From positions 10,462 to 74,461 of IMG/VR virus record IMGVR_UViG_3300021400_000049: DNA of 64,000 nt; one strand, 5' to 3'. Below, piece by piece: positions 7,182 to 14,609 of this stretch (positions are counted from its first letter, which is position 1; each line of letters opens with the position of its first letter). The DNA comes from a virus (lineage: Duplodnaviria; Caudoviricetes). The notes below the pieces were generated by a model. That model was not told the DNA's origin. It saw only the letters and a list, made by a program, of their open reading frames with translations, and searched no databases. A program made the translations under genes and the position numbers.

Positions 7182-7274
7182 GCACAGTAACTCAGTTGGC
7201 TAGAGGAAGTTATGAGTCTTTTGGTAAGCGTTTCAACTCATAGTGTGTCATGGGTTCGAGTCCCATCTGTGCTA
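7181..7274 (+). tRNA. tRNA-like element with aberrant, extended anticodon arm (no assignable anticodon)
   Basis: Acceptor AGCACAG/CTGTGCT+A; D arm CTC-AGTTGGCTA-GAG; T arm ATGGG-TTCGAGT-CCCAT; anticodon arm about 9 bp with 18-nt loop; no encoded CCA. Confidence 0.65.
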
Positions 7275-7564
7275 TTAGTTGTTCATGGTCAGAGCAACTA
7301 ATCTAGTAGTATTATTTTTCATGGTATGATTAACGCTACAAACAACTTATTTATGTCTACTTTGCTCTATTACATATCAGATAGAGCGGTAACCGTAAAC
7401 TACATCTTGTGGTTAAGATGTTTTTGGATACACAAATGCAAAACACATTGGTCTAAATCGTTTTGTTGTTCAAGTACAACTCCTGACATAAATTGATTAG
7501 CTAAGTTGTAGGTGTCGAACTAAACCGCGACATGGTTTATAAGCTAATACTAAAGGAGAATATT

Positions 7565-9115
7565 ATGCCATTATTTGAGATACAAAAGACAAGTACGGTG
7601 TCACAAGATACTGCACTTTTAAAGAAATCAAAGAAAAGGGCAAGCTCAATTACCACTACTAAATCTAGTAGTGGTAATCTTGTCAATAAGATAAATGCCA
7701 TTAAAGCTATGGTAGAAACTCATTTAGGAAAGTTTGCTGATGAGACCATAATAATTCAAGATGAGCAAACACTTTCCTATTATATAGACAGGTGCATAGA
7801 TAATGGTATATGTGCAATAGATACAGAAACTACAGGACTAGACCCGTTACAAGACGAATTAGTTGGAGTAGGTATTTATACACCAGGTGAAAAGACTGCA
7901 TATATACCAGTAGGTCATATGTCATATGTTACAGGTCAAAAAGTAAAGAATCAGCTATCATTAAATGTAGTTGGTAAGTATCTTGCGAAGCTACAGGAAT
8001 TGATAGATGTGGATATTGATATGTTCAATGCCCCATTCGACATAAGATTCATAAAGAATCATACAGGTACAAGACTAAAGTGTACATGGGATGCTTATTT
8101 AGCATCAAGGTGTCTAAATGAGAATGAGCCTAATAAAGGTTTAAAGAAATTACATCAAAAATATATTCTTAGGGGTGAAGAAGATGCCTTTAAGTTTGAC
8201 GAATTGTTTAAGGGAATAAATTTTGCATATATACCTATACAGACAGGCGCATTATATGCAGCCCATGACCCAAAGATAACTTATGAATATGCACAGTATC
8301 AGAGGGATATATTTAGAACCAAAGATAATCTTAAAGATGTTTATTGGGTATTCAAGAATATAGAAATGCCTTGTGTTGATGCAGTAGTCGATATGGAAGA
8401 CACAGGAATAGAATTTGATTTTGAATACAATGATAAGCTCAAAGAGAAATATCACAAGCTACTGGAAGAGAAGGAAACAAATTTCCACAAGCTCTGTGAG
8501 ATGTATAGAGATGAGATTGATAATTATAGCGGTGCAGTAAGATTAGACAATCCTATAAACATACAATCTGTACCTCAATTACAAGCTCTTTTGTATGATA
8601 TAGCAAAGATAGAACCTGTAATAGATAAGAAAACAAAGAAGCCTACAAGAAGTACATCTGAGGACACATTAAAGAGATTAAAGAATCCATTAGCAGATGC
8701 AATACTTGAATATAGGGCATTCTCTACAATAGTCAGTACATTCATAGACAAACTTCCTGAGTGTGTTAATCCAAAAGATGGTAGAATACATTGTAAATTT
8801 AATCAGTATGGTGCTGATACAGGAAGATTTTCTAGTAGTGACCCTAACCTCCAGAACATACCCAGTCATAATAAAGAAATACGAAAGATGTTCAAAGCTA
8901 CAGATGGTGAATACATTGTTAGCACAGATACAGATACTTTGGAAGTAGATAGATTTACAGAAGTTGAAACACCAGAAGGATGGAAGTATTCAGATACTTT
9001 AAAAGCAGGCGACTTGTTATTAGTAACAGATGAAGATGGTGAAGCAGAATATGAGATAGATGCCGTTGATGTGTTAGACGAAAAAGTTGTTATCAGACTA
9101 TACTTACCAAGTTGA
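7565..9115 (+). CDS. polA: DNA polymerase family A, N-terminal part (3'-5' exonuclease, thumb, start of palm) ending in a Hint-like domain
   Basis: Exo motifs AIDTETTGLD, FNAPFD, YAAHD; TGRFSSSDPNLQNIP; start placed after AAGGAG at 7553-7558. Confidence 0.9.
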   Translation: MPLFEIQKTSTVSQDTALLKKSKKRASSITTTKSSSGNLVNKINAIKAMVETHLGKFADETIIIQDEQTLSYYIDRCIDNGICAIDTETTGLDPLQDELVGVGIYTPGEKTAYIPVGHMSYVTGQKVKNQLSLNVVGKYLAKLQELIDVDIDMFNAPFDIRFIKNHTGTRLKCTWDAYLASRCLNENEPNKGLKKLHQKYILRGEEDAFKFDELFKGINFAYIPIQTGALYAAHDPKITYEYAQYQRDIFRTKDNLKDVYWVFKNIEMPCVDAVVDMEDTGIEFDFEYNDKLKEKYHKLLEEKETNFHKLCEMYRDEIDNYSGAVRLDNPINIQSVPQLQALLYDIAKIEPVIDKKTKKPTRSTSEDTLKRLKNPLADAILEYRAFSTIVSTFIDKLPECVNPKDGRIHCKFNQYGADTGRFSSSDPNLQNIPSHNKEIRKMFKATDGEYIVSTDTDTLEVDRFTEVETPEGWKYSDTLKAGDLLLVTDEDGEAEYEIDAVDVLDEKVVIRLYLPS

Positions 9116-9139
9116 CTTGTTGAGAAAATTCAGTATAAT
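9112..9139 (+). promoter_or_regulatory. Promoter for the GIY-YIG gene (probably leaderless mRNA)
   Basis: TTGACT-16 nt-TATAAT; ATG lies 7 nt after the -10 box with no RBS. Confidence 0.6.
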
Positions 9140-9145
9140 TAACTT

Positions 9146-9865
9146 ATGATTATATATAAAATAACAAACAAAATAAATGGAAAAGTTTATATAGGTGCAA
9201 CAAAGCAATCACTATCCGATAGATGGAAACAACATTTAAAGAAAATGTTATGCTATCCTGACAGAAAACTATATAAAGCTATGACGGAGTTTGGCATAGA
9301 TAATTTTAGTATTGAGGTTATACAAGAAGTGTTTAGTTATGATGAACTGTATAACCTCGAAACTATGTATATAGCAAAATATAATTCTGTTGATGATGGA
9401 TATAATACTCAATCGACTTCTCCTCAGAGAGAGGATTGGGAAGAATACTATGAGCATCTACACTTATCAATGACAGATGAGGTTAAGCAAAGAATTTCCA
9501 ATACTATGAAAAATAAGATTAAAAATGGAGAATTTTTCACACCTGAACATAGAAAGAAATTAAGTGAAGCACAAAGGGGTAGAAAATACTCTCCAGATAG
9601 AGCGGCAAAGTGCGCAACAAGGTGTATAGCTTGTTATTGTATAGTTGATGGTAAACGCTTTGATTTTAAAGATTATAAAGATGCAGGTGTATGGTGGTAT
9701 TATAATTACAAGCCTTTTGGTGAAAAATACTCAGTAAGTATATATCAAAAGAAAATAGTGCAGTCAATAGAATTAGGATATTGCACATATGGTAATAAAG
9801 GACATAAGAATTATAAGTATATAGATAATATTAAATGGTATAGAAAGGCAGGTGATGTCAAATGA
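9146..9865 (+). CDS. GIY-YIG homing endonuclease with NUMOD3-like repeat, between the polA fragments
   Basis: IIYKITNKINGKVYIGAT...R; HRKKLSEAQRGRK. Confidence 0.85.
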   Translation: MIIYKITNKINGKVYIGATKQSLSDRWKQHLKKMLCYPDRKLYKAMTEFGIDNFSIEVIQEVFSYDELYNLETMYIAKYNSVDDGYNTQSTSPQREDWEEYYEHLHLSMTDEVKQRISNTMKNKIKNGEFFTPEHRKKLSEAQRGRKYSPDRAAKCATRCIACYCIVDGKRFDFKDYKDAGVWWYYNYKPFGEKYSVSIYQKKIVQSIELGYCTYGNKGHKNYKYIDNIKWYRKAGDVK

Positions 9866-9921
9866 AAAAGTCGATAAGAGTTAGAAAACAATATGTTCTA
9901 ATGTCTGCCGACTATTCTTAG
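9862..9921 (+). CDS. polA: 19-codon polA fragment MKKSIRVRKQYVLMSADYS carrying the motif A catalytic Asp
   Basis: AGGTGA RBS and ATGA overlap with the upstream stop; YVLMSADYS matches polA motif A; ends at TAG 9919-9921. Confidence 0.75.
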   Translation: MKKSIRVRKQYVLMSADYS

Positions 9922-9922
9922 G

Positions 9923-10822
9923 TCACAACAAGAACCGAAAGTTATGACGATGATGTGTAATGACCCATCAATGATTAAAGCGTACAAAGAAGGAAAGGAT
10001 TTATATGCAGAAATTGCGGCGTTATCTTTCAATACAACTTATGAGAATTGCCTCGAGTTTAGACCCGACGGTACTACTAATCCCGAGGGTAAAGAGAGGA
10101 GAAGTCAGGCGAAGTCAATACTTCTTGGTGTTCTGTACGGCAGGGGAGTACCAAGTATTGCTGAACAACTTGGAACAACAACGGCAAAAGCTCAACAAAT
10201 AAAAGATGCAGTAATGAAAGGATTTCCAGCTATTGAAAAGTTTGAGCAAGATTCTATAGCTATGTCAGAGGATGTAGGATATGTAACAACTCTTTGGGGT
10301 AGAAAGAGAAGATTACCTTCAATGATGTTGCCTGACTTTGAATTTGAATATTTAGAGAGTGCTGATAATGCTGACCCATTAGATTTTGGTGATGATATTG
10401 ATAATGAAGTTCCTGATAGTGTTATCAATAAATATATGCACAGACTTACAAAAGCATGGGGCAGAGAAAGGATAAAGATAATATCTCAGGCTAAAGAAGA
10501 AGGAATAAAGATTATAGACCACACAAAAGATAAAGATACAACTAAGGTAGTAAATGCTAGAATACAAGGTAGTGCCGCAGACCAGTCAAAATTAGCCATG
10601 ATAGCTCTTAATAAGGATGCAAGATTAAAAGAGCTAGGATTTAGAATACTTATTCCTGTGCATGATGAGATAATAGCAGAATGTCCTATTAAAAATGCAA
10701 AAGAAGCAGTAGAGCGTTTCAAATATATAATGGAACACGCTAGTGGAGACAAATTCACAATACCTATAAAATGTGATGTAGAGTGCAGTGAAAGATGGTA
10801 TGGGGATACAATTGAAATTTAG
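9923..10822 (+). CDS. polA: DNA polymerase family A, C-terminal part (rest of motif A, motifs B and C), in the +1 frame relative to the 19-codon fragment
   Basis: SQQEPKV upstream of ATG 9944; RSQAKSILLGVLYG; NARIQGSAAD; PVHDEII. Confidence 0.9.
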   Translation, partial: SQQEPKVMTMMCNDPSMIKAYKEGKDLYAEIAALSFNTTYENCLEFRPDGTTNPEGKERRSQAKSILLGVLYGRGVPSIAEQLGTTTAKAQQIKDAVMKGFPAIEKFEQDSIAMSEDVGYVTTLWGRKRRLPSMMLPDFEFEYLESADNADPLDFGDDIDNEVPDSVINKYMHRLTKAWGRERIKIISQAKEEGIKIIDHTKDKDTTKVVNARIQGSAADQSKLAMIALNKDARLKELGFRILIPVHDEIIAECPIKNAKEAVERFKYIMEHASGDKFTIPIKCDVECSERWYGDTIEI

Positions 10823-10859
10823 TCATATCTGTAGTAGTGTAAAATAAAAAGGATGCGAT

Positions 10860-11522
10860 ATGACTAAAATATATTTGGTGACAAATCTAATAAATGGCAA
10901 GCAATATGTTGGTAAAACGAAATATTCATTAGCTCATAGATGGGCACAACATTGTACTAGACCGTACAATACATATTTACATAATGCTATTGTAAAATAT
11001 GGCAAAGAAAATTTTAAGATAGAGGAGTTATGTAGATGCTCAGATGACAAGTGGGAAGATTTGGAGAAATATTATATTCAAAAATATCATACACATTATA
11101 CTTGTGGAGGGTATAACATTTCTTTAGGTGGAGATTCTAATCCTATGGACGACCCTGTAGCTAGAGAACGACATAAGGCAAAAATGTCATCAGTAGAGCA
11201 AAAACTAAAGGATAGTGCGACTATAAGAAAATATAATTCGTCAGAGTTACGCAAACAACATGATAAGAAGACCTCTGAGAGACAGAAAGGCATATATAAT
11301 ACTCAATTTAGAAAATATAATGATTCTAAGAAAGTACGAATAGGTATGATTGAAGAAGGAAAAATTATTAAAGAGTTCGATTGCGCATCTGATGCCTGTA
11401 GATTTTTAGGTAAGCCATCAAAAGAAGCAGGTCATATTTTGAAAGTTTGTGATTGTATAAATAAATTTGGAAGACCAGCAAAGCATTTTGGATATAGCTG
11501 GACAAGATTGGAGAAAGAATGA
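10860..11522 (+). CDS. Free-standing GIY-YIG homing endonuclease (NUMOD1-like C-terminus)
   Basis: KIYLVTNLINGKQYVGKT...HRW; LEKYYIQKY; FDCASDACRFLG. Confidence 0.85.
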   Translation: MTKIYLVTNLINGKQYVGKTKYSLAHRWAQHCTRPYNTYLHNAIVKYGKENFKIEELCRCSDDKWEDLEKYYIQKYHTHYTCGGYNISLGGDSNPMDDPVARERHKAKMSSVEQKLKDSATIRKYNSSELRKQHDKKTSERQKGIYNTQFRKYNDSKKVRIGMIEEGKIIKEFDCASDACRFLGKPSKEAGHILKVCDCINKFGRPAKHFGYSWTRLEKE

Positions 11523-12379
11523 GATTTGCGGTATTCATATTATCTCATGCTAGAGCTAATAGGGTTGAGACCTATAATACATTAAGAGATGCAGGATATA
11601 CAGGTAAAATATATATTACTGTAGATGATGAAGATTCACAATTATCTACATACAAAGATAGATTTGAAAATTCGGATGATGATACTGAGCTTTTAGTGTT
11701 TGGTAAACAACCTATGATTGATATTGCTGATACTGTATATCCTGAAAAGAAAAGAAGTTCAGCATTATACGCTCGTAATTTTATAGAGAATATGGCAGAA
11801 ATATTTAGATTAGATACTTTTGCCATGATGGACGATGATATTACATCATTAAGATTTAGATGGATAGAAGATGGTTCAGTAAAGTCACATATTGTAAATT
11901 CAACTATGGATAAAGTATTTGAATACTACAGTCAGTATATAATTGACGCTGAGATTGCCACAGCTTCATTTCCATACAGTATGTTCTATGTATCAGGAAC
12001 AAGCGGGTTAGATAAGAAAATTACAGAGAGTAGGCATACTTATCAGATACATATAAGGAATACAAATTTTCCTGTTGATTGGGTATCTGTAATAAATCAA
12101 GATACAATCACACAGTTACAGACAATGCAAGTAGGTTATATATGGTGGTCAATACCTTATCTAGTATTTGATGCAGAACCTATGAACAGTAAATCAGGTG
12201 GATTAAAGTCTGTATACGATAGTATAAAAGATTTTGATATGGCATTTCTCGCAGTAATTTCTAATCCTAGTTGTTGTAAAGTAGCTTATTCTAGTGGACC
12301 TAGAAGTACAATGCAGATAAAAGAAGATAAGCACACAAGTTATCCTATGATTGTTAGTGAAAGGTATATGAAACTATGA
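11519..12379 (+). CDS. GREB1/TAGT-like GT-A glycosyltransferase
   Basis: FILSHARA...TL...GY; MMDDDI; EPMNSKSGG. Confidence 0.65.
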   Translation: MRFAVFILSHARANRVETYNTLRDAGYTGKIYITVDDEDSQLSTYKDRFENSDDDTELLVFGKQPMIDIADTVYPEKKRSSALYARNFIENMAEIFRLDTFAMMDDDITSLRFRWIEDGSVKSHIVNSTMDKVFEYYSQYIIDAEIATASFPYSMFYVSGTSGLDKKITESRHTYQIHIRNTNFPVDWVSVINQDTITQLQTMQVGYIWWSIPYLVFDAEPMNSKSGGLKSVYDSIKDFDMAFLAVISNPSCCKVAYSSGPRSTMQIKEDKHTSYPMIVSERYMKL

Positions 12380-13215
12380 TTGTGTATATAAAAACACATG
12401 GCAGACCAGGTAAGCAGTTGACTTACAATACTCTACGAGAAGCTGGCTACACAGGAGATATAGTCTTAGTCATAGATAATGAAGATGAATGTGGTGTAGG
12501 ATATTTAGAGTTCGTGAAACATGATGACAGACTATGGTTGCACATCTTTGATAAACAAAAATTGGTAGATGAGATAGATAGTGGCACAAATATTCCTAAA
12601 AGAGATGTAAATTTATATGCTTGGGTTGCTTGTGAGAGATTTGCAGAACAAGATGGTAATGATTTCTTCATAATGGCAGATGATGATATAACAAGATTTA
12701 GGTATAGGTATCTTGAAGATGGACATTTAAAGTCAATACCTATAACACAGAATCTTGATAGAGTATTTGAACATATTCAGAATTATATGGAATGCTCCAA
12801 TATAGCCGCTGCCAGCACAGGAATACCTCAAATGTACTTCTCTAAAGAGTTAGACGAAAATCTGTGGAAATACAGAGTGGCGTATCAATTCGTATTCAGA
12901 AATCCTAAATTTGATATGAATTGGGTGTCTGAATATGAAGAGGATATAATAACATCCATCAATATGTCAAAAGAAGGAAAGTATGTCACTTGTTTACCTA
13001 TGATTCAGCATGACGCAGTAGCTTTAGGTAAATCAGATGGCGGTATGAAAAGTATGTATGATGAGAATAATAGTCGATTTAGTCTCGCTGAGTATGGCCA
13101 TATATTTAATCCTTCTTGTGAGATTATGAATTTTTATAAAGGTAAGTGGATAACTAATATAAAAAGAGATAACGCATTTCAGAAATTAGTGAGTTCCAGT
13201 CGCAAGAAGATATAA
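12376..13215 (+). CDS. GREB1/TAGT-like GT-A glycosyltransferase (paralog)
   Basis: IKTHGRP...TL...GY; MADDDI; EEDI; KSDGGM. Confidence 0.65.
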   Translation: MIVYIKTHGRPGKQLTYNTLREAGYTGDIVLVIDNEDECGVGYLEFVKHDDRLWLHIFDKQKLVDEIDSGTNIPKRDVNLYAWVACERFAEQDGNDFFIMADDDITRFRYRYLEDGHLKSIPITQNLDRVFEHIQNYMECSNIAAASTGIPQMYFSKELDENLWKYRVAYQFVFRNPKFDMNWVSEYEEDIITSINMSKEGKYVTCLPMIQHDAVALGKSDGGMKSMYDENNSRFSLAEYGHIFNPSCEIMNFYKGKWITNIKRDNAFQKLVSSSRKKI

Positions 13216-13264
13216 AGTGTTATATAATGTTTAAGTAGTTCACACTAAGTTGAAAGGAGATAGT

Positions 13265-13759
13265 ATGAAGCAGTTATTTGAGGATGATAGTGCAAAGAAA
13301 AATCCTATGGGGGATGATACAAAGTATTCAAGAGCAATAAGAGTACCACAGTATGAACCTAAGAATGAGAAGCCTGAGTTGGAGTCAGTTTATGACCTCA
13401 CTAAGTATAGCAAGTTGATTGCTAAAATCAATAAGTCGGGTGTTACGGAAGAAGAAAAGAAGTTTCTCAAATTTGCCGCAACAAGACATATTGTATTTAC
13501 TTATAGTAAGATAGCTGATTATTATGCCAATGCTAGTGCTGAGATGCAGGCACTAATGGAAGAATCAGCACTTGTTATACTTGACATTGACGATGCTATA
13601 GCAAATGGATATGTGGCTCTATCAGAGAAGATGAAACAACTTATTGATGAAGAAAAGGCTAGAGATGCAAAAGCTAGAGAGGCTAGTAATATATTGAAGG
13701 CTCAAAGAGAATTAGCAGAGAAGAAAGCTAAGGAGAAAAAGGATGAGCAGAAGTCTTGA
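13265..13759 (+). CDS. Conserved alpha-helical phage protein accompanying GREB1-like glycosyltransferases
   Basis: IRVPQYEP, AATRHIVFTYSKIADYYA, EESALVILDIDDAIANGY; own promoter and RBS at 13200-13260. Confidence 0.5.
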   Translation: MKQLFEDDSAKKNPMGDDTKYSRAIRVPQYEPKNEKPELESVYDLTKYSKLIAKINKSGVTEEEKKFLKFAATRHIVFTYSKIADYYANASAEMQALMEESALVILDIDDAIANGYVALSEKMKQLIDEEKARDAKAREASNILKAQRELAEKKAKEKKDEQKS

Positions 13760-14609
13760 TGATTTTGCAGTATTAGTCTTAACTCATGGTAGAGCAGAGA
13801 ATGTTCCTACATACGGTACATTAAGAAAGTACGGTTATACAGGCAGAATAATAATGGTAGTTGATGATGAAGATCCTGATTTAGAGAATTACATTTCAGT
13901 GTATGGTAAAGAAAATGTGGAAGTATTCTCTAAAGATGAGGTTGTGCATAAGTTCGACACAATGGATATTCCTAAGCATAGAAAGTGTATAGTGTACGCT
14001 AGAAATGCCAGCTATGATATTGCAGAGAGACTTGGCTTAAAGTATTTTGCTCAGTACGATGATGATTATGTAACAAACCCTTATAGATGGCAAGAAGGAG
14101 ATACATTATATCGAAGTACATTAGCTAATCTTGATGAGGTATTTAAGGCACATATAGATTTTCTTGAAACTAATCCTAATATCTATACTGTAGCGTTTGG
14201 TCAAGCAGGAGATTATATAGGTGGTGTAGGCAGTAATCTTGTTAAGAGAAAGTGGCTAAGAAAAGCCATGAATAGCTTCATTTGTAAGACTGATAGACGA
14301 ATACAGTTTAACGGAACAATAAATGAGGATGTAAATGCCTATGTGCTGAATGGTTCAAGAGGTCAGATATATCTCACATTTGATTTTATGATGATAGACC
14401 AAGCAGAGACACAGACACAAGCAGGTGGTATGGCAGATTTATACTTAGGTGTAGGTACATATCAAAAGTCATTCTATACTGTAATGTGTAGTCCATCATG
14501 TGTGAAAGTAGGTATGATGGGAGATAGACATTATCGTATGCACCATAATATAGAATGGGATAATGCAGTTCCAAAAATAATATCAGATAGATATAAGAAA
14601 ACAAAATAG
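13743..14609 (+). CDS. GREB1/TAGT-like GT-A glycosyltransferase (third paralog)
   Basis: VLTHGRA...TL...GY; QYDDDY; INEDVN; QTQAGGM. Confidence 0.7.
   Translation: MSRSLDDFAVLVLTHGRAENVPTYGTLRKYGYTGRIIMVVDDEDPDLENYISVYGKENVEVFSKDEVVHKFDTMDIPKHRKCIVYARNASYDIAERLGLKYFAQYDDDYVTNPYRWQEGDTLYRSTLANLDEVFKAHIDFLETNPNIYTVAFGQAGDYIGGVGSNLVKRKWLRKAMNSFICKTDRRIQFNGTINEDVNAYVLNGSRGQIYLTFDFMMIDQAETQTQAGGMADLYLGVGTYQKSFYTVMCSPSCVKVGMMGDRHYRMHHNIEWDNAVPKIISDRYKKTK

Follow-up and report, generated by a model that had tools for sequence, protein, structure and literature searches.

The family A DNA polymerase gene of the phage (Duplodnaviria; Caudoviricetes) in IMG/VR record IMGVR_UViG_3300021400_000049 is in pieces, and comparative genomics indicates that ribosomes probably perform a programmed bypass within polymerase motif A of its mRNA. 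In this reading, translation would leave a serine codon that is directly followed by a stop codon and resume at another serine codon a few nucleotides downstream. The analyzed stretch, here called the window, comprises 64,000 nucleotides (nt; positions 10,462 to 74,461 of the record) and represents most of a complete phage genome of 74,461 bp with 107-bp terminal repeats and 36% G+C. The proposed bypass site is part of a homing-endonuclease cassette. We consider it likely that this cassette represents a second, independently evolved family of natural bypassing with the first natural stop-hops, that it forms a hairpin over a leader of 19 codons, that its insert of 3–13 nt confers target-site immunity, and that the hop is efficient enough for a replicative polymerase.

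The two halves of the polymerase gene are arranged around an endonuclease gene as follows, in window coordinates:

7532–9115, plus strand: upstream polymerase half of 527 amino acids (aa), with 3'-5' exonuclease and polymerase parts (Pfam DNA_pol_A_exo1 and DNA_pol_A profile positions 4–163)
8909–9112, plus strand: C-terminal extension (CTE) of about 68 aa, all-beta, not of polymerase origin, resembling the N-half of an intein without its nucleophile, and kept in 16 cassette-bearing relatives
9146–9865, plus strand: GIY-YIG homing endonuclease gene between the polymerase halves (Pfam GIY-YIG E 3.6e-10, weak NUMOD3 match)
9850–9855, plus strand: Shine-Dalgarno (SD) sequence AGGTGA of the downstream half, 6 nt before the ATG at 9862
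9862–9918, plus strand: well initiated open reading frame (ORF) of 19 codons, MKKSIRVRKQYVLMSADYS, ending GCC GAC TAT TCT and followed by TAG
9862–9891, plus strand: N-terminal extension (NTE) MKKSIRVRKQ, a new start that is basic and cassette-encoded, with the pattern M-K-K/R-S/L-I/L-R-x-R-K across 32 distinct sequences
9892–9918, plus strand: homology patch (HomR) YVLMSADYS, which re-encodes the motif A beta-strand and the catalytic Asp (GAC, 9910–9912) and matches YVLMS(A/S)DYS of uninterrupted relatives
9916–9918, plus strand: take-off codon TCT, the last codon of the homology patch
9919–9922, plus strand: coding gap, consisting of TAG (9919–9921) and G (9922), proposed to be undecoded on the basis of its natural variants
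9923–9925, plus strand: landing codon TCA, proposed from the landing-codon rules to add no second Ser, with decoding resumed at CAA 9926
9923–10822, plus strand: downstream polymerase half with SQQEPK of motif A, followed by motifs B and C (Pfam DNA_pol_A from profile position 167)

The polymerases of phages phiCTP1 and Dp-1, which are intact, can be aligned with the polymerase part of the upstream half until the residues just before motif A. This part ends with ...IRKMFKATDG (NLQNIPSHNKEIRKMFKATDG), followed by 68 non-polymerase residues. The stop codon of the endonuclease gene overlaps the ATG at 9862 (ATGA), and a strong SD sequence is located 5–8 nt 5' of the corresponding start in all 18 loci listed. 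The codons TCA CAA CAA GAA CCG from position 9923 are in the +1 frame relative to the 19-codon ORF, and the remainder of the polymerase runs from there to 10822. A first-pass annotation of the window, made from its letters alone, had reported this TAG-G insert in motif A with TCT as take-off codon and TCA as landing codon in the +1 frame, and its description proved exact to the base. It had also observed that the ATG at 9944 has no clear ribosome-binding site and would omit motif A, which our analysis bears out: there is no SD sequence 5' of this ATG, and an ORF from 9944 omits motif A because Pfam matches only from profile position 167. Only the 19-codon ORF encodes a conserved motif A Asp. 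A candidate "IVSTD" in the upstream 527-aa ORF, with the mini-ORF as a duplicate of the true motif A Asp located there, was dropped since this stretch is not conserved in the relatives.

Relatives were collected from IMG/VR, JGI/ENA metagenomes, Logan assemblies of separate Sequence Read Archive (SRA) runs and metagenome-assembled genome (MAG) contigs of GTDB. Using the tail of the upstream ORF as a query against protein databases, we obtained three relatives, whose contigs are Logan assemblies of three different SRA runs. All three share the three-gene layout of the window as well as GCCGACTATTCTTAGGTCACA, and substitutions are present on either side of it. Pattern scans located the site in 24 viral contigs, approximately 30 metagenome contigs and two MAG contigs. 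The first-pass annotation had suggested looking for the break in independent related genomes, and across all scans it recurred in 32 distinct leader sequences without any change in its codon position, with a gap of varying length. In a set of 80 related polymerase genes, approximately 66 are uninterrupted and read ...KMFxAxxGYVLMS(A/S)D(Y/F)SQQEP, while in the remaining 14 the break comes precisely behind the D-Y-S serine codon. The flanks of the gap-bearing sequences are diverged, with endonucleases that are 40–49% identical and C-fragments that have accumulated more than one synonymous substitution per site (dS >1). The recurrence of the break is far more than chance. An assembly error, which the first-pass annotation had listed among its alternatives, is excluded because the independent assemblies agree.

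The scan of genome collections yielded mostly chance matches and two true ones, namely the two MAG contigs. These are labelled Paludibacteraceae (rumen) and Firmicutes, and we do not trust the labels as host assignments. The phages are from rumen or gut samples and have ribosome-binding sites of the Firmicute type. An alignment of the endonuclease was also tried as a probe of viral contigs and was abandoned, as it returned only generic GIY-YIG genes.

Taken over all scans, 14 versions of the gap and landing codon were identified, with hop distances of 6, 7, 8, 15 and 16 nt and gaps of 3–13 nt:

6-nt hop: TCT TAG TCA
7-nt hop: TCT TAG-G TCA or TCT; TCT TAG-T TCA or TCC; TCT TAG-A TCA; TCT TGA-A TCT or TCA
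8-nt hop: TCT TAG-CG TCG; TCT TGA-AG TCA
15-nt hop: TCT TAA-CAG-TGA-AAG TCA; TCT TAG-CAA-TAA-AAG TCA
16-nt hop: TCT TAG-TTAAATGGAG TCA; TCT TAG-TTGAATGAAG TCA

Among these versions, the downstream frame is 0, +1 or +2 relative to the leader, and the two in-frame 15-nt versions contain two stop codons each (TAA..TGA and TAG..TAA). As expected for bypassing, the outcome of a Ser-to-Ser hop is independent of frame and yields D-Y/F-S-Q-Q-E at every hop distance. The 63-nt leaders of the related loci L011 (TAGG) and L186 (TAG) are identical, and the two sequences are one base apart in the gap; therefore, the gap length modulo 3 is evidently free. The distance from the start to the break is fixed at 18–19 codons. 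In the 16-nt variants, found in L155 (2985–3003), L226, L229 and L240 (TAGTTAAATGGAG, TAGTTGAATGAAG), an in-frame ATG follows the stop at a distance of 4 nt and precedes the landing site by two codons.

The codons on the two sides of the gap follow strict rules. All 32 sequences use TCT for take-off, a codon present at 1 of 62 intact sites, and a stop codon (TAG, TGA or TAA) is placed directly after it in every version. The landing codon is TCA, TCT, TCG or TCC, never AGY, and is always followed by CAR CAR GAR. By comparison, the same Ser is encoded by TCA (29 genes), AGT (15), AGC (8), TCG (6), TCC (3) and TCT (1) in the 62 non-identical intact genes, which corresponds to AGY in 23 of 62. Both the take-off and the landing codon belong to the UCN box in all 14 versions and can be read by the same tRNA, as bypassing would demand. 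The Asp codon is always GAC in the gap-bearing leaders, as compared to 33 GAC and 29 GAT in the 62 intact genes. Synonymous variation is seen at the V, L, S and A codons of the leader, while GAC and TCT are fixed.

Selection has also left its mark downstream of the gap. The residues S-Q-Q-E after landing are invariant in 16 diverged sequences, where only synonymous third positions vary (TCA/TCT/TCG, CAA/CAG, GAA/GAG). No conserved ATG, GTG or TTG codon is present in the SQQE frame among these 16 sequences, and neither L157 nor L172 has an ATG within the next 12 codons after landing. The ratio of nonsynonymous to synonymous substitutions (dN/dS) in the C-fragments of gap-bearing lineages is 0.12–0.25 at dS >1, and by this measure the C-fragments are under purifying selection.

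A conserved RNA helix, which emerged from single-sequence folds and a re-anchored alignment, connects the start of the leader with the take-off site:

9864–9875, plus strand: 5' arm, consisting of the G of AUG plus AA, then AGUCGAU, which pairs with 9907–9917
9907–9917, plus strand: 3' arm, consisting of GCCGACU, then UUC, which takes in bases one and two of the take-off codon and is supported by covariation

In the window, G9864–A9866 pair with U9915–C9917 and A9869–U9875 pair with G9907–U9913. The helix encloses nearly the whole mini-ORF and ends within the take-off codon. Scored on the same related sequences from which it was derived (17 in a first test and 32 in a second), the helix has a covariation score of 0.267 in the 32 sequences, as compared to 0.180 ± 0.012 in shuffled alignments, none of which (0 of 500) reached this value. 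Standard pairs make up 91.6% of all cells in the 32 distinct sequences, versus 33–64% if the 3' partner is slid. The pair 9873/9909 is AU in 16 sequences, GC in 14, CG in one and GU in one, and the next pair is CG in 12 and GC in five. Where the 3' side reads AGT GAC, the 5' side of the same lineages reads AAG TTA CT, and the helix is there lengthened to 8–9 pairs. A consensus fold of the whole region from -75 to +45 contained almost no common structure.

The first-pass annotation had also pointed to a small hairpin at the take-off site. Such a hairpin exists, but its 4-bp version in the window is weak (-3.3 kcal/mol, and up to -10.3 kcal/mol among the variants), and the conserved helix is a different one of longer range. 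In L157 (2979–2996) and other 6-nt variants, the local structure is a perfect 7-bp inverted repeat, GTGACTA-TTCT-TAGTCAC (-10.3 kcal/mol), whose loop contains the take-off codon and whose 3' arm contains the codons for stop and landing. The covarying helix and the conserved basic peptide of the leader are candidate stimulators of bypassing.

The borders of the cassette can be read from a pair of closely related loci, L157 with the gap and L158 without it, which are 98% identical upstream and 95% identical downstream. Their identity breaks after ...KMFIA, where approximately 945 nt in L157 take the place of 34 nt in the parent, and it resumes at the landing codon. The single AGT codon for Ser in the parent L158 corresponds to TCT TAG TCA in L157, and the inserted patch TATGTTCTTATGTCTAGTGACTAT matches L158 at 22 of 24 bases. 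The same 3' border was observed in the comparison of L155, which has an insert of approximately 2.26 kb, with L140. As delimited by these alignments, the element consists of the tail, the endonuclease, the leader, the homology patch and the gap. It contains all parts of a split gene borne by an endonuclease, namely an in-frame tail, an intervening endonuclease gene, a new start with a leader, and a patch homologous to the target. The endonuclease at this place is of the GIY-YIG type in most lineages, with orthologues that are 40–49% identical. An HNH_3 endonuclease is found instead in L014, and L012 and L182/L184 are without an endonuclease. The cassette of L155 additionally contains a PAPS-reductase-like gene (948–1928; Pfam PF01507, E 2e-10) and a small ORF, both located between the tail and the endonuclease.

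The CTE tail is conserved in 16 relatives at 40–53% identity and has no match in Pfam. In the AlphaFold2 model, it forms a beta domain of six strands with a predicted confidence (pLDDT) of about 85 over residues 28–87. Inteins are the structures most similar to it; the alignments begin at intein residue 1, and the scores are modest (Foldseek E 0.06–0.2). The VIA Z scores range from 6.8 to 5.7 for the MchDnaB-1, PI-SceI, Prp8, gp41-1 and PolII inteins, including 6.8 for MchDnaB-1 (root-mean-square deviation 2.1 over 54 residues) and 6.1 for gp41-1 (28% identity). The column aligned to intein residue 1 contains E, V, T, C or M in the tails, which end before block B, and the leader is without HN. 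Protein splicing is not expected, because the tail relatives and the downstream start conserve neither a nucleophile nor a TxxH block or HN junction. Judging from the predicted fold, a split intein may have left this tail as a relic, whose sole present role would be to hold the halves together. The relic of a lost group I intron that the first-pass annotation had considered finds no support, as a search of positions 8700–11700 against Rfam, with E values up to 1 allowed, gave no match. Moreover, no splice junction restores DYSQQE, and the flanks are translated ORFs under selection.

We propose that a homing-endonuclease cassette invaded the polymerase gene and split it just before motif A. Ribosomes initiating at 9862 would translate 19 codons and then come to a pause, with UCU paired to the peptidyl-tRNA(Ser) and the A site occupied by UAG. 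This tRNA(Ser) would then let go of the mRNA and re-pair 7 nt downstream at UCA, with decoding resumed at the CAA that follows. The product would be one chain, MKKSIRVRKQYVLMSADYS-QQEPKV..., with an intact motif A, and the tryptic peptide expected from this trans-gap chain is QYVLMSADYSQQEPK. The leader helix probably helps the mRNA to move forward, and its re-formation at the mRNA exit could pull on the message, as is suggested by the analogous 5' stem-loop in T4 gene 60 (bioRxiv 10.1101/2024.12.09.627546). The polymerase halves would subsequently assemble non-covalently, perhaps via the tail and the leader. As in the case of T4 MobA, the insert probably also breaks the target of the endonuclease, so that the cassette-bearing genome would be spared.

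A hop is favoured because it is the sole mechanism that fits all variants, with their five hop distances, three stops and four landing codons. The main rival is termination followed by separate initiation. Here, the enzyme would consist of three chains or be truncated: TAG would end a peptide of 19 residues, the downstream half would start at the ATG at 9944 or by re-initiation near the stop, and the Asp would come from the free peptide or be absent. We regard this as unlikely overall and as plausible only for the 16-nt variants, where an in-frame ATG placed 6 nt before landing and 4 nt after the stop represents a classic coupling geometry. A short peptide could also be retained by the intein-like tail, in the way that short C-fragments are bound in split inteins. 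However, the 6-, 7-, 8- and 15-nt variants have no in-frame ATG, GTG or TTG before SQQE, yet SQQE is invariant, and the three-chain enzyme mentioned in the first-pass annotation is thereby left, except in the 16-nt variant, without a start codon that would keep these conserved residues. The ATG at 9944 is without an SD sequence and omits motif A, no nearby ATG is available in L157 and L172, and selection for TCT at take-off and TCN at landing would be left unexplained. A programmed +1 frameshift at UCU-UAG-G, similar to that of prfB, is very improbable. The window variant is indeed +1, an A-site stop stimulates +1 shifts and AGG would be the next codon in the new frame, but close relatives are in-frame (6 and 15 nt) or +2 (8 nt), whereas a prfB-type site has a fixed +1 shift with re-pairing in the P site, and the tRNA(Ser) on UCU cannot re-pair on the non-cognate CUU. 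The window would then be read as ...ADYS-RS-QQEP, in line with the earlier remark that a simple +1 shift would insert RS into motif A. Such a two-residue insertion between D-Y-S and Q-Q-E would fall in the enzyme's best-conserved motif and is found in 0 of approximately 66 intact relatives, and the product would differ from the junction peptide expected of a hop, YVLMSADYSQQEPK. Stop readthrough was rejected, as it fails on frame and on the double stops. Recoding of TAG was likewise dropped, since TAG is an ordinary stop that ends 7 of 76 ORFs of the window genome, and a change of frame would be needed anyway.

Removal of 6–16 nt from the RNA prior to translation, by an unknown cut-and-ligate or editing activity, has hardly any likelihood in our judgement. 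RNA editing had been put forward as a candidate in the first-pass annotation. The gap lies in or beside a hairpin loop in several variants (for example, GUGACUA-UUCU-UAGUCAC, -10.3 kcal/mol), as would suit such an activity, but no Rfam family matches, group I introns included, and the matched Ser codons, the stop right after take-off and the fixed distance of 18–19 codons are features of translation and not of splicing. We know of no bacterial or phage system that removes such short mRNA segments. It is equally improbable that the polymerase gene is a recently broken, non-functional one under a selfish cassette, or an artefact of assembly. The genome is known from metagenomes only and cassettes of this kind can be mildly harmful, but the independent assemblies agree and the genome is complete with terminal repeats. 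The cassette is also old, as judged from the identities of its endonucleases (40–49%) and tails (40–53%), the dN/dS of 0.12–0.25 in the C-fragments speaks for a functional gene, and the helix shows compensatory changes.

Several observations weigh against a hop. The case for it is built on comparative genomics alone, from sequences that are related and a cassette that is mobile, and shared descent could explain part of the invariance of the 12-nt core. The 16-nt variants may use termination and re-initiation instead of or beside hopping. The local take-off hairpin is weak in the window, and the phage encodes no tRNA(Ser), its sole tRNA being specific for Thr. Searches of 50,697 phage records with the region, by megablast and blastn, gave no match, and no cultured phage with the cassette was found. 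The laboratory stop-hops that Weiss and co-workers described in E. coli in 1987 were reportedly inefficient. In citing papers, they are called "low efficiency" or "low-level", and a replicative polymerase presumably needs a fair yield.

The closest parallel to the polymerase cassette is the T4 gene 39-mobA-gene 60 cassette with its 50-nt bypass (Bonocora et al. 2011, as cited in bioRxiv 10.1101/2022.08.31.505936). The MobA element is composed of CTE, endonuclease, NTE, HomR and bypass, and ends at the landing codon (Manning & Atkins 2022, bioRxiv 10.1101/2022.08.31.505936). According to the same source, its endonuclease is at times swapped for GIY-YIG or VSR types or lost, the T4 insert stops MobA from cutting its own genome, and the gene 60 cassette is "unique". 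In both systems, an endonuclease splits an essential replication gene, with an upstream tail, a new downstream start with a leader, a patch and an untranslated insert, and the gap persists even where the endonuclease has been exchanged or lost. The polymerase cassette further resembles T4 gene 60 in its matching codons for take-off and landing, the stop after take-off, the 5' mRNA structure and the end of the element at the landing codon. The first-pass annotation had compared the change from Ser TCT to Ser TCA with stop-hopping and T4 gene 60 bypassing; at the level of sequence, all natural variants and the cassette context support the comparison. However, the host gene is here motif A of a family A polymerase and in T4 the Toprim of a topoisomerase, without sequence similarity between the two. 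The hop is from Ser UCU to UCN as compared to Gly GGA to GGA, the gap is 3–13 nt as compared to 50 nt (20 nt in one clade), the leader has 19 codons as compared to 46, and the tail of the polymerase cassette, unlike that of T4, is intein-like. Since it is not inserted in a topoisomerase gene, the polymerase cassette is analogous to the T4 gene 60/MobA family and not a member of it.

Other known systems share individual features with the polymerase site. The 6-nt variant TCT TAG TCA is exactly that of the stop-hops obtained with E. coli in the laboratory (Weiss, Dunn, Atkins & Gesteland 1987, described in citing papers). Those hops are described there as low-level and in synthetic constructs, whereas the polymerase site is conserved, located in an essential motif and equipped with accessory signals. 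No natural in-frame stop-hop was known to a recoding review from 2016 (PMC5009743). The nearest case of a short gap is the terminase of Streptomyces phage Hau3, also a phage gene, in which bypass occurs at a rare UUA codon and the junction peptide was identified by mass spectrometry in E. coli (PMC10732093). In contrast to the polymerase gap, the trigger in Hau3 is a rare sense codon, the bypass is thought to be regulatory, and there is no homing endonuclease or split gene (PMC10732093). In the so-called fractured genes, the two parts of a split intein are separated by an endonuclease that is free-standing (Dassa et al. 2009, PMC2677866). The polymerase gene resembles these in that a replication gene is present as two ORFs with an endonuclease gene in between and in that the upstream tail is similar to an intein N-fragment, but it lacks a TxxH block as well as a conserved Cys or Ser in the position of intein residue 1, and its downstream half does not begin with HN plus a nucleophile. 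The nrdA gene of Aeh1, split by mobE, is likewise divided by an endonuclease insertion into two ORFs, the products of which have acquired tails and yet assemble into an active enzyme; unlike for the polymerase cassette, no coding gap is reported there (bioRxiv 10.1101/2022.08.31.505936). No published description of the polymerase site was found in the full-text literature searched, the coverage of which is incomplete.

Natural programmed bypassing is so far known from very few systems, namely T4 gene 60 and its homologues, the inserts of yeast mitochondria and the terminase of a Streptomyces phage. If the polymerase site is indeed bypassed, homing endonucleases and untranslated inserts would have become paired at least twice in evolution, in support of the idea that bypassing protects mobile elements from their own nuclease. 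It would also be a minimal and naturally varied system, with a leader of 57 nt, gaps of 3–13 nt, three stops and four landing codons. This variety is suited for a dissection of take-off, landing and mRNA folding at the ribosome exit. Gene callers annotate polymerases of this kind as fragments, and similar sites have therefore probably been missed elsewhere.

A promoter-like sequence is located within the cassette:

9112–9139, plus strand: TTGACT-16-TATAAT, with 11 of 12 consensus matches the best site of the region, recognized by consensus match only

It sits at the stop codon of the upstream polymerase half, 6 nt before the ATG of the endonuclease gene, which has no SD sequence. The near-consensus promoter suggests that a leaderless endonuclease transcript is produced from inside the cassette.

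A second, free-standing GIY-YIG endonuclease gene was observed directly 3' of the polymerase gene (window 10860–11522). It is absent from the same position in L007 and L009, where a glycosyltransferase gene is located directly 3' of the polymerase gene. Three paralogous glycosyltransferase genes of the TAGT family (PF20691) are found 3' of the polymerase gene in the window (11519–14609), and also in L007 and L009. Two GT2 genes are located between the primase and polymerase genes in L009, and the window has ORFs at the matching place. The glycosyltransferase genes suggest that the DNA is hypermodified and glycosylated. The only tRNA gene of the genome encodes an unusually long tRNA-Thr(GGT) of 88 nt (window 7188–7275, identified by ARAGORN).

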